The notes beneath the pieces were generated by a model. It was not told the DNA's origin and made no database searches. It worked only from the letters and a program-made list of their open reading frames with translations. DNA of 64,000 nucleotides from an uncultured Candidatus Saccharibacteria bacterium. GTDB lineage: Bacteria > Patescibacteriota > Doudnabacteria > UBA920. The stretch lies in contig CAZVXT010000001.1 in NCBI GenBank assembly GCA_964631145.1, positions 255,151 through 319,150 of the forward strand. The letters are read 5' to 3'. Made by a program: the position numbers and the translations under genes. Positions 4,329 to 64,000 of the stretch are shown here, piece after piece. The number at the start of each line of letters is the position of its first letter. The stretch's first letter is position 1.

Positions 4329-5402
4329 TTATTGTATTTTGAGGTCATTTTCGGGATAATCTAGATTTCGATTGTGATCTTTGTAATCCAAATTTGAATT
4401 GCTGCAAGTTGCTCCTTCAGGGCATTCAAAATTAGTCTCTCCGTCATCATATCTACAGCCATCATAGTCGATTGAACAATCCATATCTGGGTTATAGTTA
4501 CAACCAATTCTATCTTTTGAACAATGTGTTCCTGAATTATTGTTAAGTATTTCTGAAGCAAAAGAGTAGGATGCAAATACTCCAAAACCAACTAAAATAA
4601 TACCACCAATAACTGCTGCTATTTGGTAATACCAAACACCTCTAGAAGTTGGTAGTGCAGCTGGTCCAGTATTTTTTACATCATTATATATAATATACAT
4701 AAAGATCATGTATAGTGGGGCAAAAATGATCATAAGCGGACTGTAATACATGCCTGTGGTGAGGATGGCTAAGATCCATACGATTGCAAATCCAATAAAA
4801 AGGAAAAATAAATTCCACCATCTTCCTCTTACTAAGTCGCGGCTTGCTCTTACAGATTCCCATGTGGATTTGTTTTCTAATACAGCTATAAAGATAACAA
4901 ATGTAAGGCTAATGCCAAAAATAATTGCAGGGATTAAGAAGAGGGCGTATCCACCAATTATAATTAGAAACAAAATACCAATAGTTGGAAATAATCTTTT
5001 TACATCAGGCTTGGATTCTAGTAATAGATCTTTGATCGATTTGTCTTCGTTATTGGCTGCAAGATATTTGATGGAGGCTATCATCTGCCAAGAAATGGCT
5101 ACAAACAAAACAAATGCTCCATAAATAAGTAATAATGAAATGATTATCGCAGTAGCAATTTTCATATTTAAGATAGAAAAGATTGCAGCTAATAATACAG
5201 CTGGTATACCGCCAACTATAACAAACATAACCGCGATAACTAAGGTAATAATATTTATACCTAATAGGTTCCAAACTTTTGTTTTAGCTAAGCTCCAAGT
5301 TTGACTTAATATGTCGTAAAGCTGGATTTTTTTAACCGGAGCAAGAGTATTTTGAACCTGGGGTTCTTGGCTTGCCATGGTTTTTGTTGATTCTTCTGCC
5401 AT
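4329..5402 (-). CDS. polytopic membrane protein with a Cys-rich C-terminal tail
   Basis: about 8 hydrophobic helices; acidic, cysteine-rich C-terminus (CSKDRIGCNYNPDMDCSIDYDGCRYDDGETNFECPEGATC). Confidence 0.45.
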   Translation of the reverse strand: MAEESTKTMASQEPQVQNTLAPVKKIQLYDILSQTWSLAKTKVWNLLGINIITLVIAVMFVIVGGIPAVLLAAIFSILNMKIATAIIISLLLIYGAFVLFVAISWQMIASIKYLAANNEDKSIKDLLLESKPDVKRLFPTIGILFLIIIGGYALFLIPAIIFGISLTFVIFIAVLENKSTWESVRASRDLVRGRWWNLFFLFIGFAIVWILAILTTGMYYSPLMIIFAPLYMIFMYIIYNDVKNTGPAALPTSRGVWYYQIAAVIGGIILVGFGVFASYSFASEILNNNSGTHCSKDRIGCNYNPDMDCSIDYDGCRYDDGETNFECPEGATCSNSNLDYKDHNRNLDYPENDLKIQ

Positions 5403-6319: not shown

Positions 6320-6528
6320 TAACTTCAAAAGTAATAATATAACTATGTTATTATAACCAATTTTATAAATTTTGGCAATGGTTATTAATTTTTATCGTAT
6401 ACTCTAGCAGTGCCAACCCTTTTGGGATTTACTAATTCTGTAATAAATATGAAATATTAATCTTATTTCTATGTATTAATCTAGAATTTAGCCATTATTA
6501 AATGACTAAATATTAACCCTTAAAATGA

Positions 6529-6557
6529 TTGACATATATTTAAGAGTGTCTTATAAT
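6529..6557 (+). promoter_or_regulatory. consensus sigma70-type promoter, TTGACA-17-TATAAT
   Basis: perfect -35 TTGACA (6529-6534), 17-nt spacer, perfect -10 TATAAT (6552-6557). Confidence 0.55.
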
Positions 6558-6563
6558 GTACCT

Positions 6564-6667
6564 AAATATGAGTAGTTGGAACACCCATCATAAAAATTCA
6601 ATAAAATCAGCCTTTTTAGCCAAATAACGCAAAAGTTATTGGTTATTTATAGTAGGCTGATTTTTTT
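6564..6667 (+). ncRNA. candidate roughly 100-nt small RNA, or attenuated leader of the surface-protein gene
   Basis: predicted transcription start about 7 nt after the consensus -10; the transcript would end at the branched hairpin tcagcct...aggctga plus ttttttt (6607-6667); no ORF inside. Confidence 0.3.
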
Positions 6668-6740
6668 CGTGTCCTAAACCACTTATATCTGTAACATCTT
6701 AAAATATAAAGCGTCTATATAACTGAACCGTTAACAAAGC

Positions 6741-6779
6741 CTCAAAATTTGGCTCAAAGATTTTGAACCAAATTTTGAG
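6741..6779. repeat. perfect 12-bp inverted repeat with a 15-nt spacer
   Basis: ctcaaaatttgg ... ccaaattttgag; the spacer carries a nested tcaaa/tttga inverted repeat; lies about 390 bp upstream of the large surface-protein gene. Confidence 0.6.
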
Positions 6780-7165
6780 TAGTTGTTACTCGCAGAATAT
6801 AGTAGAAAGTTTTTACAATCTAATTATTGACCCATTCTTTAAATTCACTATAAAAGGTGTCTATTAATATAATTACCCGCTAAAGTTTGCTTTTAGTAAA
6901 CAGTAGTGGGGGAAAGACTTCTTGGTCGAACTTTTGTAGCAAATGGTTTGAGAATGGACTATCAATAGTCGGCCTATATTTAAAGTCCGGTTTAGCGAAC
7001 TCTAGAGCGCTAGGCTAGTACGATAAAATAGTTCGTTAAAATCAATTAATTATTTTCTAAAAATTTGATTGTCTCAATTGAATAATCAATTTTGCTTACC
7101 TCTCTTTTGTCAGATAATGAACACAAGATAGAACTAGGCATCAATTTTAGAAAATGGAGTTCTAA

Positions 7166-31847: not shown

Positions 31848-32528
31848 CTAGTTATTTTTGTACTTTTTTACGTAGTAGTTATTAGCAAAGTCTAATTGAA
31901 TAGGAGTTCCAACTGGTAGCCAATTACTTGCCATAATTGCATGAACTGGTTGTGTTTTTGCCAGATTAATTAATGTGTGAGGAAGGCTATATTCTGTTTT
32001 TTCATTAACAGAAATTTTTACTAATTCTTGATCATAAAAATCTTTTGTTAAAGCATAAGCTCCGCAAATTGTTAGTCCAGAGCTACTATCAAATCCTTCA
32101 ATTAGTCCTTCGCTGTCGATTTTTAATCCAAACTCGTAAGCTTTGTTGCTTGGCCATGCAAGAAGTCCTACTCCATTTGATATTAGTTTTTGTAAATCAT
32201 TTTTGTCGTACAAGTCATCTCCATTTACAACCAGAAACTTTTCTTTTACAAAATCTTTTACACGAAGAATAGCGTCACCGGTACCTAGTAATTCTGTTTG
32301 TTCAACATAAGTTATTGGTTTTCCATTCCAAGATTCTTTAAAATGATCTTTAATTTGTTGTCCTAAGTAACCAATTACGATTAAAATCTTGTCTATTTTA
32401 TCTGGTAAGGATTCGAGTGTATATTCAAGTAGAGGTTTATCAGCAATAGGGATGAGTGGTTTTGGATGATGTTCTGTGAAAGGGCGAAGTCTTAGACCTT
32501 TGCCCGCCGCGAGGATTACAGCTTGCAT
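31848..32528 (-). CDS. sugar-phosphate nucleotidyltransferase
   Basis: N-terminal AILAAGKGLRLRP nucleotidyltransferase signature. Confidence 0.65.
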   Translation of the reverse strand: MQAVILAAGKGLRLRPFTEHHPKPLIPIADKPLLEYTLESLPDKIDKILIVIGYLGQQIKDHFKESWNGKPITYVEQTELLGTGDAILRVKDFVKEKFLVVNGDDLYDKNDLQKLISNGVGLLAWPSNKAYEFGLKIDSEGLIEGFDSSSGLTICGAYALTKDFYDQELVKISVNEKTEYSLPHTLINLAKTQPVHAIMASNWLPVGTPIQLDFANNYYVKKYKNN

Positions 32529-32604: not shown

Positions 32605-32970
32605 ATGGACCAAGAATTAGGCTTAAAAAAGAGGTTGTTGTGGAATTTTAGCACAACTTTAACAATATTTTTGTTACTGACTACTTCGGCTGTTTTTGCT
32701 TATTATTTATGGGTAGATCCGGGAAAAGTTTGGACAGAAGTTTCGAGTAGCGAAGGTTTGGTAAATATCGTGTGGGTATTTTGTAGCTATAATGTTTTAT
32801 TTACTAACACGCTAGATAATTGGGAAAGCTTTGCGAAAATATCCTTCAGAATAATGGCTTTTGGAGCTGCTTTTATAACTTTGATATTTAATCCAATATT
32901 GTTTTTAATTGGCAGTATTTTTGGGCTATTATTATTGCTGCATTATTTTATTAAAATAGCTCAAAAATAA
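32605..32970 (+). CDS. hypothetical membrane protein
   Basis: 121 aa, 3-4 hydrophobic helices, SD aaggagg; terminator at 32972-33003. Confidence 0.35.
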   Translation: MDQELGLKKRLLWNFSTTLTIFLLLTTSAVFAYYLWVDPGKVWTEVSSSEGLVNIVWVFCSYNVLFTNTLDNWESFAKISFRIMAFGAAFITLIFNPILFLIGSIFGLLLLLHYFIKIAQK

Positions 32971-33014
32971 TTTATAGGCATCATTTTTGATGCCTTTTTA
33001 ATTTAAATAAAATG

Positions 33015-33039
33015 CAAATGGTGCGCCCTGAGGGACTCG
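33015..33039. repeat. 25-bp direct repeat copying the 3' end of tRNA-Arg(UCG) plus 4 nt of flank
   Basis: caaatggtgcgccctgagggactcg at 33015-33039 is identical to 33207-33231 (tRNA 3' end); the copies are 192 bp apart. Confidence 0.8.
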
Positions 33040-33118
33040 TCTACCTCACGCTAGTTTCCTCAACACAATCGTTATCACTCATTGTGTTTCGTCAACTGAC
33101 GCTGCGGTAGACTCCTAC

Positions 33119-33149
33119 GCAAAAATTCTTCCACTGGAAAAATTTTTGC
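33119..33149. repeat. 31-bp near-perfect palindrome inside the 190-bp insert
   Basis: gcaaaaattcttcca c tggaaaaatttttgc: 15-bp arms with one mismatch. Confidence 0.7.
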
Positions 33150-33210
33150 TATTTTCTCGTCCCGCGTTGCAATCATTTGTATTTTCAGCATAATGTGCCA
33201 AAAATACAAA

Positions 33211-33287
33211 TGGTGCGCCCTGAGGGACTCGAACCCCCGACACTTGGTTCCGAAGACCAATGCTCTAATCCACTGAGCTAAGGGCGC
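33211..33287 (-). tRNA. tRNA-Arg(UCG)
   Basis: acceptor GCGCCCT/AGGGCGC, anticodon loop CTTCGGA, T-loop TTCGAGT, encoded CCA. Confidence 0.75.
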
Positions 33288-33355
33288 ATAAAGCTTAGTT
33301 ATTTTAACCAAATTACGATAAAAAATCAATCAATAATAAATGCTATACTTATTTT

Positions 33356-34285
33356 ATGATTACTTTGTTATTAGGATCTGAATTCTTAAGTAAAACTAAA
33401 TATTTGGGAGATTTGTTAAAGAATGGCGGCAATATGGAGCCTTTGTATATAAAAGAAAAAGAAAGACTTCCAAAACAAGCCGATCTAAATTCTGGTACCT
33501 TGTTTGGACCAAAGCAATGTTGGGTTATAGAGAATCTAGCACAAGAGCTAAATGAAGAATTGGTCCTGGCATGGGAGCAGAGTTATCAACAAATTGTTCT
33601 GGTACAGGACAGTATCGACAAGCGTACCAAGTTATTAAAATTTTTATTAGAGCACAGTAGTGTTGTAGAATTTAACCCTCCAAATATAAATGAGGCTAGT
33701 AAATGGATTGCATCTCATGTTAAAAATTTGGGCGGTACAATCGACTCCAAGGCTTCCGAAGAATTGGTGAGAAGGTTATGTGGAGATGTTTATGAGGAAC
33801 TTCCTATTGGCATATGCCATAATGAGATTTTAAAATTATTAAGCTATGTTGGAACGAAAAAACATATTACTTTAAAAGATGTTGAAAGTCTCACTTCCGG
33901 TCAAGATAATATCGATATTTTTTCTTTGACAGATGCATTGGCAAAAAAAGATAAGCGTTCTGCTATTTCGTTATTGCAGAGATATTATAATAATGAAGCT
34001 GATTTTAAATCTGCAACTATTAAATTAGTAGCTTTATGGAACGAGCAAATCAGAACATCACTAATGGTGAAGGACTGGATTGCACAAGGTGTTGCAGAAT
34101 CTGAGATCTTAGCAAAAACAGGATGGAAAAGTGGACGACTATATATGGTTAAGAAAAATGCTAATCAATTTGATCAAAAATTATTGCTCTCAATTATTAA
34201 CAAATTAGTTAATCTAGATATCGAACTAAAAACAAGTACAATGCCTGCTGATGTGGTTGTGGATTTGATTATTGCATCTTTATAA
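33356..34285 (+). CDS. holA: DNA polymerase III delta subunit-like (HolA)
   Basis: C-terminal pattern SKASEELVRRLCGD...EILKLLSYVG..KHITLKDVESL...NIDIFSLTDAL resembles the HolA clamp-loader delta subunit. Confidence 0.5.
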   Translation: MITLLLGSEFLSKTKYLGDLLKNGGNMEPLYIKEKERLPKQADLNSGTLFGPKQCWVIENLAQELNEELVLAWEQSYQQIVLVQDSIDKRTKLLKFLLEHSSVVEFNPPNINEASKWIASHVKNLGGTIDSKASEELVRRLCGDVYEELPIGICHNEILKLLSYVGTKKHITLKDVESLTSGQDNIDIFSLTDALAKKDKRSAISLLQRYYNNEADFKSATIKLVALWNEQIRTSLMVKDWIAQGVAESEILAKTGWKSGRLYMVKKNANQFDQKLLLSIINKLVNLDIELKTSTMPADVVVDLIIASL

Positions 34286-52392: not shown

Positions 52393-52872
52393 ATGCCTAT
52401 AGATATAAAAGAGCAACAACCAAAATTAGATATCGCAGAAAGGTTTACCAATTGGATCGGTTCAACTACTTCGATAGTTGTTCATACGATATTATTTATC
52501 GCTGCTTTTGCTTTAGTATTTTTTGGTGTAGCTTTTGATACTATACTGTTAGTGTTAACAACTGCAGTATCTTTAGAAGCAATCTATTTGGCATTGTTTA
52601 TTCAGATGACTGTAAATAAAAATACTCAGAGTTTGGCTGACGTTGAAGAAGACATTGATGAGATTCAGGAAGACATTGATGAGATCCAAGAAGATGTTGA
52701 AGAAATTGAAAAAGATATTGATGAGATCCAAGAAGATGTTGATGATATCGAAAAAGATGGAGAAGAGGATGATCTCCATGATGCTGCAACAATGAAGACT
52801 CTTAATGAAATTCAGGCTAATATGATGAAGCTGATGCAAGAGTTAGAGCATTTAAAAAATCAAAAGAAATAG
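52393..52872 (+). CDS. DUF1003-like membrane protein with an acidic tandem-repeat tail
   Basis: two N-terminal TM helices, then (E/D)DIDEIQED repeats. Confidence 0.4.
   Translation: MPIDIKEQQPKLDIAERFTNWIGSTTSIVVHTILFIAAFALVFFGVAFDTILLVLTTAVSLEAIYLALFIQMTVNKNTQSLADVEEDIDEIQEDIDEIQEDVEEIEKDIDEIQEDVDDIEKDGEEDDLHDAATMKTLNEIQANMMKLMQELEHLKNQKK
52645..52765 (+). repeat. in-frame 21-24-nt imperfect tandem repeat (coding)
   Basis: gaagacattgatgagattcag x2, then diverged units encoding EDVEEIEKD / IDEIQEDVDDIEKD. Confidence 0.6.
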
Positions 52873-58201: not shown

Positions 58202-58278
58202 TGGTGCACCCGACAGGATTCGAACCTATGACCTCCCGCTCCGCAAGCGGACGCTCTATCCAGCTGAGCTACGGGTGC
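58202..58278 (-). tRNA. tRNA-Arg, genomic anticodon GCG (hand-folded)
   Basis: acceptor GCACCCG/CGGGTGC, anticodon stem TCCGC/GCGGG, loop TTGCGGA, T-loop TTCGAAT, encoded CCA. Confidence 0.6.
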
Positions 58279-58380
58279 ATGTTTGATTTATATTAATCAT
58301 CATGAGCTTTCGGCACAGCCGACAGCTCTATATTGCACTGTGTAGTTAATTGGCTATAATTTTGTTGCCCTAAGGCAACG

Positions 58381-58400
58381 CCAGTTGAGCTACGGGTGCA
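58381..58400. repeat. 20-bp copy (one mismatch) of the 5' end of the adjacent tRNA-Arg
   Basis: ccagttgagctacgggtgca at 58381-58400 versus ccagctgagctacgggtgca at 58260-58279; the 100-bp spacer holds two stable hairpins. Confidence 0.7.
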
Positions 58401-63052: not shown

Positions 63053-64000
63053 CTATTTTTTATTGTGAAATCTTTTATGAATTTCGCGAAGCTGCTTATT
63101 GGTCACGTGAGTGTATATTTGAGTTGTTGTGATGGAGGCATGTCCGAGTAAAGTTTGGACACTTCTAATGTCGGCGCCGTTTTGCAACAAGTCAGTAGCA
63201 AATCCATGTCTAAAAGTATGAGGGGTTACTTTGTGCATAATACCGGCAAGTCCTGCATATTTTTTTACCAATCTCTGGACGCTGCGAGCGGTTAATCCGG
63301 GGATCATTTGGTTACCGCCAATGGATTCGATTTGTCTTTCTACGCTATTGCCAACTTTGCTATGGCTAACAAATAGGGCAGGGTTGTTGTCGTTACGTTT
63401 TTTTAAATAATTTTTAATAGCTTTAGCAGCTTCGTCGGACATAAAAACTAATCTAAGCTTATCTCCCTTACCACGGACAGTAAATTCGCCGCGCTCAAAA
63501 TTTAACTGTTTAATTTTTAGTTGTACAAGTTCTGAGATACGTACACCGCTAGAGAAGAGAAGTTCTAAAATTGCCAAATCCCTTAAGCGAGCAACTTCAT
63601 TATTTTCTCTGCTGGTTGCTTCTTTAATGCGATCAAGTTCATCAATTGTTACCACATCAACTTCTCGGCTTGGATTTTTTGGTAATTCTATTTTTTCTGC
63701 TGATAGAGTATCTATATCTCTTTTAGCTAGATACTTTAAAAATGCTCTCACTGCAATGATGTGATAGTTCTGAGTGATGATTTTTAGATTGCGACCTGTG
63801 CGTTCGTCTGTAAGACGGTTTAAATAAAGTCTGTAGCTTCTAACAACTTCTAGATTTACTTGTTTTGGGTCAGTGATATTTTGTGACTTACAGAAAGTGG
63901 AGAAGCGGGAAAGATAGTGGTCGTAGTTGCGAATAGTCTTTTGGGACTTATTTTTTTCTATTTCGCAGTATTCTAAAAAATCCTGAACAAATTTAGCGAT
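63053..64000 (-). CDS. xerD: XerC/XerD-family tyrosine recombinase, N-terminus truncated by the window edge
   Basis: C-terminal catalytic region HTFRHGFATDLLQNGADIRSVQTLLGHASITTTQIYTHV. The reading frame continues in-frame upstream of the GTG start chosen by the track (IAKFVQDFLEYCEIEKNKSQKTIRNYDHYLSRF... core-binding domain) out to position 64000. Confidence 0.7.
   Translation of the reverse strand: MAKFVQDFLEYCEIEKNKSQKTIRNYDHYLSRFSTFCKSQNITDPKQVNLEVVRSYRLYLNRLTDERTGRNLKIITQNYHIIAVRAFLKYLAKRDIDTLSAEKIELPKNPSREVDVVTIDELDRIKEATSRENNEVARLRDLAILELLFSSGVRISELVQLKIKQLNFERGEFTVRGKGDKLRLVFMSDEAAKAIKNYLKKRNDNNPALFVSHSKVGNSVERQIESIGGNQMIPGLTARSVQRLVKKYAGLAGIMHKVTPHTFRHGFATDLLQNGADIRSVQTLLGHASITTTQIYTHVTNKQLREIHKRFHNKK

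Follow-up and report, generated by a model that had tools for sequence, protein, structure and literature searches.

Results

A second copy of the tRNA-Arg(UCG) 3' end lies downstream of the intact gene

The locus described here lies within a 64-kb stretch of DNA from a small, AT-rich genome; the whole of this stretch is referred to below as the window. The locus comprises an intact tRNA-Arg(UCG) gene with an encoded CCA, located on the minus strand at 33211..33287, which the original prediction had called from the letters of the sequence and which was recovered by both ARAGORN and Rfam (RF00005, 68.5 bits). A promoter-like site on the same strand (33301..33329), consisting of TTGATT, a 17-nt spacer and TAAAAT and identified by consensus match only, is present upstream of the tRNA. 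The neighbours of the locus are housekeeping genes, with an NTP-transferase gene (31848-32528, minus strand) on one side and holA (33356-34285, plus strand), which is followed by typA/bipA, on the other. Between the NTP-transferase gene and the tRNA locus there is an orphan 121-aa ORF (32605-32970, plus strand) that codes for a predicted membrane protein and has no Pfam or NCBIfam match. A GC-containing terminator hairpin at 32976..32995 is common to the tRNA and the convergent ORF.

The tRNA gene shares an exact 25-nt direct repeat (CAAATGGTGCGCCCTGAGGGACTCG) with sequence downstream of it, the two co-oriented copies being spaced 192 bp apart from start to start. The proximal copy (33207..33231, minus strand) begins midway through the T-loop and ends 4 nt into the trailer, past CCA, and the distal copy (33015..33039, minus strand) constitutes a displaced tRNA 3' end with a terminator hairpin 24 nt away. 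When read on the tRNA strand, the repeat starts at the third base of the T-loop (TT/CGAGT) and continues through the T-stem 3' strand, the acceptor 3' strand, CCA and the 4 nt of trailer. The repeat thus comprises the last 21 nt of the tRNA and 4 nt of flank, exactly as had been predicted, and it grows to 31 nt when one mismatch is allowed (33009-33039 versus 33201-33231). The window contains only five exact direct repeats of at least 16 nt, among which the 25-nt repeat is the second longest, so a chance origin of this repeat is excluded. That the repeat might be an assembly artefact, a possibility raised with the original prediction, is countered by the independent Logan assembly of run SRR12712865 (L001), which shows 100% identity over 841 nt of the locus, and the locus is therefore not the artefact of one assembler.

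The placement of the terminator is also informative. The remaining tRNAs of the window have a terminator no more than about 10 nt from CCA, and the sole convincing terminator for tRNA-Arg(UCG) is the hairpin 24 nt past the distal copy, which probably represents the original terminator of this gene. Given the spacing of about 10 nt at the window's other tRNAs, the distal copy would mark the original end of the gene, and tRNA-Arg(UCG) would now have a long structured trailer.

The inserted segment is gene-less and rich in hairpins

The sequence between the two repeat copies (33040..33206) is 167 bp in length, and the 190 bp originally given for the bracketed segment has to be corrected accordingly, 192 bp being the period of the repeat. 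No credible ORF is found in this segment, in agreement with the original prediction, since the interval offers only reading frames of 27-42 aa and one of 84 aa that passes through the tRNA in antisense. The GC content of the insert is 40%, as compared to ~31% for non-coding sequence of the window and 34% for the window as a whole, which places the insert in the top 7% of non-coding windows.

Three hairpins are present. The first, H1 (33174..33212), has 17-nt arms (33174-33190 and 33196-33212) that are 88% complementary and occurs straight after the intact tRNA, overlapping its CCA and trailer; its stem is 15-17 bp long and no U-run follows it on the tRNA strand. The second, H2 (33119..33149), is the near-perfect palindrome that had been noticed initially, with 15+15-nt arms (33119-33133 and 33135-33149) that are complementary at 14 of 15 positions and a CAGUGG loop on the tRNA strand. 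The third, H3 (33053..33097), has a core stem of CACAAT/ATTGTG at 33064-33086 and corresponds to the second hairpin of the original prediction, which had missed H1 as well as a 10-nt inverted repeat (GTCTACCTCA/TGCGGTAGAC; 33039-33048 and 33103-33112) that begins at the left junction and encloses H3 (33039..33112 overall). On the tRNA strand the order is thus tRNA, H1, a GGGAC motif, H2, the nested hairpin region H3, the displaced 3' end and the terminator. The insert reads TCTACC... from 33040 and ...AAAATA up to 33206, so its two ends do not form inverted repeats. Folding of the insert relative to shuffled sequence gives z = -8.0 for the tRNA strand and -6.6 for the opposite strand, and its fold is in the extreme tail among the non-coding segments of the window. 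A covariance search with Rfam 15, run at an E-value threshold for the locus and at the gathering threshold for the whole window, returned only sub-gathering noise for 33015-33210, the tRNAs being the sole matches at the locus and throughout the window.

Degenerate homology extends beyond the identical core

We compared each position around the repeat with the position 192 nt away. In-register similarity rises above background only over ~95 nt around the core, which rules out a simple tandem duplication, including one of the full 192 bp. Specifically, the 40-nt trailer after the intact tRNA (33171..33210, minus strand) matches the distal trailer (32979-33018) in register at 24 of 40 positions (shuffle p ~1e-4; genome-wide frequency 0.001). 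On the other side of the core, the 34 nt adjoining the distal copy (33040..33073, minus strand) match the tRNA body at 17 of 34 positions and form a degenerate tRNA-like remnant (shuffle p = 0.003; best of 138 offsets; genome-wide frequency 0.014). Roughly 97 nt in the middle of the insert have no counterpart. A further degenerate fragment leftward, as would mark a larger island, was also sought and nothing above background was found. Judged by this profile, the locus is composed of two diverged copies of the tRNA 3' part plus trailer that are identical only in the 25-31-nt core. Such a profile would be expected of an attP with its origin in a tRNA locus and under constraint only where it had to match attB, and also of recombination with diverged orthologous DNA.

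The site is unoccupied in syntenic relatives

Among 5.8 billion clustered proteins, no relative of the window's HolA exceeds 39% identity, which indicates that no close relatives are present in the data. The order NTP-transferase, tRNA-Arg(UCG), holA is nonetheless kept in five distant genomes (L003, L004, L005, L007 and L008; holA 33-39% identical), and this allowed the comparison with related genomes that the original prediction had proposed. In all five a hairpin or the next gene directly follows the tRNA, a second copy of the tRNA end is absent and the site is unoccupied. The 192 bp thus constitute an insertion specific to the window's lineage. The slot downstream of tRNA-Arg(UCG) varies between lineages, some of the relatives having unrelated small ORFs there. 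We also considered the 121-aa ORF of the window as a candidate native gene and rejected it, as it is not homologous to the small ORFs that relatives have in this place; consequently, this ORF is no proof of a native distal flank.

Searches for further copies, a parent element and a recombinase

The original prediction had also proposed a search for further copies of the segment, and none were found in the window or in the collections that were scanned. Specifically, BLAST of the insert against the 64-kb window gave no second copy, and distant BLAST searches of phage and plasmid collections gave only a chance 36-nt match to chicken microviruses. Scans of larger collections were by exact match only, hence insensitive, and the window's organism is itself not in these collections; within those bounds, the displaced-fragment pattern (tRNA 3' end plus a non-tRNA base) had no match in GTDB representative genomes or in IMG/VR and four chance matches in JGI metagenomes, on GC-rich contigs without a tRNA. 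Likewise, five 19-23-mers taken from the insert and its junctions had no match in IMG/VR, and two patterns built from the Moranbacteria units described below had no matches.

In regards to a recombinase, there is no integrase in or adjoining the interval. The XerD-like recombinase that had been noted 30 kb away at the end of the window is real, being a XerC/D-like gene (63053-64000, minus strand) and the sole tyrosine recombinase in the 64 kb, but nothing connects it to the tRNA-Arg(UCG) site. The frame of this gene is open to the end of the window and runs off it, so the 232-aa length of the ORF as listed is a truncation artefact and does not reflect an N-terminally shortened protein.

Small inserts at tRNA ends occur in other genomes

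We examined 80 GTDB loci that have the same tRNA 3' end. Three of these (L046, L049 and L019) contain a tRNA-Arg(UCG) gene, then 100-180 nt, and then a co-oriented copy of the last 15-19 nt of the tRNA; L046 and L049 are from Parcubacteria and Moranbacteria and L019 is from a deltaproteobacterium. Several other double matches were rejected. Those in the Chloroflexota loci L013, L031 and L072 represent two complete tRNA-Arg(UCG) genes located 1.2-2.1 kb apart, with metabolic genes (Rieske/DoxD, epimerase) and no integrase between the tRNAs of L072, the Chloroflexota locus examined, and the match in L028 represents two adjacent tRNA-Lys genes.

L046 (4270-5270) and L049 (6240-6930) contain tRNA operons (Lys, Arg, His, Arg) in which hairpin-rich units of 75-180 nt are bracketed by perfect tRNA-end copies. 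Relatives of L046 were fetched through its neighbouring VanW gene (L093, L094, L095, L096 and L098), and their comparison shows these units to be present in some strains and absent in others. L098 has a clean four-tRNA operon with zero inserts. L046 and L093 share a 163-bp insert, flanked on both sides by 22 nt of the tRNA-His 3' end, that L094 lacks, the VanW common to L093 and L094 being 98% identical to that of L046. A case at a 5' end is provided by a 92-bp insert that contains a promoter-like sequence and is accompanied by a duplication of 17 nt from the tRNA-Lys 5' end; it occurs in L046, L093 and L094 and is missing from L049. Strains that are otherwise near-identical have different middle parts in their Arg unit.

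Two further loci from this set have more complex arrangements. L095 contains two tandem units after tRNA-Lys (4541-4765), each of which starts with GGGATTTGA, an inverted TCAAATCCC, and is closed by the 3' end of tRNA-Lys (AAATCCCTCACAGCGCAC), and upstream there is a near full-length tRNA-Lys pseudogene with a ~20-nt hairpin in the D-loop. L096 contains two upstream tRNA-Lys 5' fragments (4376-4560) of a GCGCTGT type with D-loop hairpins of 23 and 46 nt. The intact tRNA-Lys is of a GGGTCAT type, so these fragments are not copies of the adjacent gene.

The 3'-type units open with an inverted copy, 11-14 nt long and significant, of the T-loop plus T-stem 3' strand and end with a direct copy, and both of their ends track the local tRNA sequence. 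Shuffled sequences did as well as the inverted T-arm copy in 0-2 of 300 trials for L046, L049, L095 and L096, as compared to 269 of 300 for the window's insert. No integrase is present within ~3 kb of the Moranbacteria-type units and no Rfam match was obtained for them. Since these comparable inserts, which are bracketed by tRNA ends, vary between near-identical strains, tiny tRNA-end inserts are a recurrent phenomenon. The window's insert does not demonstrably belong to the same sequence family as the Moranbacteria units: only H2 aligns with L049, and weakly (z = 3.8; 3 of 500 shuffles), and nothing aligns with L046 or L019.

The deltaproteobacterial case comes from a MAG in which tRNA-Arg(UCG) is followed by 102 nt and a copy of the last 15 nt of the tRNA (18-21 nt when trailer is counted) at L019 7495-7611, with a ccdB toxin gene located just beyond. 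The window also has a second tRNA gene with a partial repeat nearby. At 58381-58400 on the minus strand, the first 19-20 nt of tRNA-Arg(GCG) (58202-58278) are repeated with one mismatch 121 nt upstream of the gene, and the interval 58279-58400 contains a hairpin (GTTGCCTTAGGGCAAC) and a degenerate stretch that resembles the D-stem 3' strand and anticodon stem of this tRNA. This interval looks like a 5'-type partial tRNA duplicate with a D-loop insertion, like those upstream of tRNA-Lys in L046, L095 and L096. A common identity of the window's two tRNA-associated inserts was considered and rejected, as there is no mutual similarity between them.

Discussion

An att-flanked remnant as the preferred reading

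The reading that we prefer, tentatively and at somewhat less than an even chance, is that an element integrated in the T-loop of tRNA-Arg(UCG) and that the insert is its gene-less remnant or a miniature form of it, still flanked by att sites and similar to a cis-mobilizable element (CIME). A small foreign DNA would have recombined site-specifically with the tRNA gene, in or beside the T-loop, most probably by the action of a tyrosine integrase. This integrase may have been encoded by a larger element that later lost its interior, or may have been supplied in trans; alternatively, a unit that was minimal from the outset may have integrated. The incoming DNA would have contributed a tRNA segment of its own, reaching from the T-loop to CCA and followed by a short trailer, and this supplied copy (33207-33231, an attL-like junction) would now complete the working gene. 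The original 3' end would have been displaced 192 bp downstream (33015-33039, an attR-like junction), where it presumably still lies beside the original terminator. The remaining 167 bp of hairpins would then be two half-attP arms joined to each other, and the remnant is probably inert today. A likely side effect is that, with its nearby terminator lost, the tRNA is transcribed with a structured 3' trailer of ~215 nt. The empty site predicted by this scheme is ...TTAAATAAAATGCAAATGGTGCGCCCTGAGGGACTCGAACCCCCGACAC... and the predicted circle junction is ...GTGCCAAAAATACAAATGGTGCGCCCTGAGGGACTCGTCTACCTCACGC...

The original prediction had described the locus as the attL/attR signature of a tyrosine-integrase element. 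The geometry of the repeat and the empty sites in relatives uphold this description, and the missing linked integrase speaks against it. The distal copy keeps the terminator spacing typical of the window's other tRNAs, and the gene-less Moranbacteria inserts, which are present or absent among near-identical strains, are arranged in tandem as in att-site accretion. The sharply bounded core and the raised GC content of the insert also favour this reading. Against the action of an integrase are the absence of any integrase in or adjoining the interval, the window's only tyrosine recombinase being an Xer-like gene 30 kb off, and the searches of the window, IMG/VR, GTDB representatives, JGI metagenomes, phages and plasmids, in which no parent element or second copy was found. 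The interval is also about 10-fold below the 2-kb minimum used by Islander. One part of the original prediction, that the locus may be the scar of an excised island, does not hold, as precise excision restores the site and leaves no duplicate; thus, only the internal decay of an integrated element leaves such a structure.

Alternative origins of the insert

An integrase-independent origin is unlikely on balance, though it is the main alternative. Here foreign or ectopic DNA with a diverged tRNA-Arg 3' region and trailer would have been joined via a short stretch of identical tRNA, with no mobile element involved, either by homology-facilitated illegitimate recombination after natural transformation or by a short-homology or template-switch event, and the product would be a partial duplication. 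The flanks of the two copies are homologous yet diverged, as they would be in orthologous donor DNA, and homology of the trailers past the core is also what orthologous recombination partners or local ectopic duplication would produce. No integrase is present, and type IV pilus or competence-like genes occur nearby (PilM, PilN, T2SSF), which is circumstantial. Near-identical Moranbacteria strains swap whole spacer blocks with boundaries inside tRNA genes, and L096 has 5' fragments whose tRNA-Lys type differs from that of the intact gene. Other bacteria are known to have small variable segments near tRNA runs and to undergo homology-facilitated illegitimate recombination (PMC2884548). However, independent events consistently place the junctions in the T-loop for 3' cases and in the D-loop for 5' cases, which argues for a structure- or site-specific process instead of random microhomology. 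In addition, an anchor of 25 nt does not exceed the usual RecA threshold, and a duplication would require a circular donor or an unequal exchange.

The Moranbacteria loci also bear on how an att-flanked remnant could have arisen, as three mini-inserts in one four-tRNA operon and the mismatch of the L096 fragments fit poorly to the independent decay of full-size islands. A broader proposal, which we regard as rather unlikely, is that the window's insert is one of an undescribed class of gene-less miniature elements of ~75-190 bp that target the D-loop or T-loop of tRNA genes in Patescibacteria. Such elements would rebuild the displaced tRNA end from their own copy, bring a terminator or a promoter, stack in tandem and vary between strains, and they would be moved by a recombinase acting in trans or by single-stranded DNA or template switching at the palindromes of the tRNA arms.

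The narrower claim that the 192-bp unit (insert plus one core copy) is an intact miniature mobile element, moved in trans and belonging to a wider candidate-phyla class at tRNA ends, appears quite improbable. The original prediction had offered a miniature non-autonomous element as one of its two readings; it gains plausibility from the strain-polymorphic mini-inserts found elsewhere, but no second copy of the window's insert was found, and the mobility of this insert is hypothetical. The inserts of 75-180 nt in L046, L049, L093-L096 and L019 are bracketed by 15-22 nt of tRNA end, vary between near-identical strains, form tandem arrays and carry their own terminator or promoter, and the interval at tRNA-Arg(GCG) provides a second case in the window. 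On the other hand, the insert has no other copy, no significant similarity to those units, no terminal inverted repeats and no significant inverted T-arm copy, only GGGAC being present, which 269 of 300 shuffles equalled or exceeded. A double-stranded circle as small as 192 bp is furthermore a poor substrate for recombination.

A functional structured RNA in the tRNA 3' trailer, with the hairpins and the second tRNA-like 3' end under selection as a processing signal or protected 3' end, is very improbable. The fold is far stabler than that of shuffled sequence and extreme among the window's non-coding segments, the distal core has stayed perfect while its flanks decayed, the nearest convincing terminator lies past the distal copy, and the Moranbacteria units have GNRA and CUUG tetraloops. 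Other observations speak against such an RNA: both strands fold about equally, as DNA palindromes do; there is no Rfam match; the segment is missing in all of the syntenic relatives and is without homologues on which covariation could show; and, by inspection of the sequence, the pseudo T-arm and acceptor would be unable to form a tRNA-like minihelix. Finally, direct repeats that immediately flank inserted DNA would also fit a transposon-type insertion with a target-site duplication (MITE- or casposon-like), an assembly artefact or a chance repeat, all of which we consider highly unlikely, as the insert is single copy in the window with ends that are not inverted repeats, a 25-nt duplication is beyond the usual range of transposases and the similarity extends past the repeat, two assemblies agree on a repeat that is shorter than a sequencing read, and the expectation for chance is ~1e-6.

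Relation to known systems

Islander identifies tRNA-integrated islands by a full tDNA with a cognate co-oriented terminal fragment, a crossover in the anticodon loop, T-loop or T/acceptor junction, an integrase inside or overlapping the island, and a length of 2-200 kb (PMC4383910). The locus has a co-oriented fragment on the same replicon, which is a terminal 3' fragment located downstream, a T-loop sublocation and a site that is unoccupied in relatives; there is no tyrosine integrase in the interval, and its length of 192 bp lies outside of the 2-200 kb range. The resemblance to tRNA-integrated islands and prophages therefore includes the intact tRNA with a downstream 3' fragment, a repeat that starts in the T-loop and passes the 3' end, a gene restored by incoming DNA and an empty site. 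The differences are that the locus is gene-less, lacks an integrase, spans 192 bp instead of 2-200 kb and has no known parent element.

CIMEs are cis-mobilizable elements, that is, decayed ICEs or IMEs that have kept attL and attR and have lost their integration and transfer genes (PMC5704250). As far as sequence can indicate, the locus bears the signature of such an element, with att-like repeats at a tRNA 3' end and no recombination genes, and the Moranbacteria analogues show tandem arrays that resemble accretion. To our knowledge, the CIMEs described so far extend over kilobases, originate from Firmicutes and can be traced to parent ICEs. In the window, in contrast, ~170 bp are left, and no parent ICE or IME was found in the collections searched, for which the exact-match scans are insensitive.

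Microdiversity and insertions near tRNA runs have been attributed to homology-facilitated illegitimate recombination (PMC2884548). The locus is similar to these events in having a small variable segment that adjoins a tRNA gene, a probably competent host and no mobile-element genes, but no restoration of a tRNA end by an exact duplication that reaches from T-loop to 3' terminus is described for those events. In regards to MITEs and other elements that leave target-site duplications, there are no terminal inverted repeats at 33040/33206 and there is a single copy in the window.

In arrangement the locus resembles the Moranbacteria/Parcubacteria units, which share with it the succession of tRNA, hairpin, 100-180 nt of hairpins, direct 3'-end copy and native terminator, without an integrase in cis; they differ in that the window's insert lacks a significant inverted T-arm copy and has no significant similarity in sequence to them. 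We know of no published name for these hairpin-rich tRNA-end units. A limited literature search found no description of such mini-inserts at tRNA ends in candidate-phyla bacteria, and their novelty is accordingly unproven.

If the insert is only the scar that an att-flanked remnant would represent, then even a genome of ~0.65 Mb was visited by tRNA-integrating elements, and such elements erode to ~170 bp yet still frame their site. Footprints of such a size go uncounted, as island finders discard anything so small. If the inserts instead form a true class of elements, they would represent minimal mobile DNA of a new kind, one that generates strain-level variation in tRNA operons and alters promoters, terminators and precursor structure in genomes where there is often one gene per tRNA.

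Other features of the window

Two additional regions of the window were noted in the course of this analysis. The first is an 846-nt non-coding stretch (6320-7165) that extends from a tRNA-Pro gene to a 1144-aa ORF and is predicted to fold very stably, with z down to -6.7; it contains a hairpin with 27-nt arms (6732-6788) and has no Rfam match at the gathering score. The second, at 52648-52742, consists of exact direct repeats of 26 nt and 17 nt, spaced 42 and 21 nt apart, that lie within an ORF (52393-52872), which suggests that they code for a short tandem amino-acid repeat.
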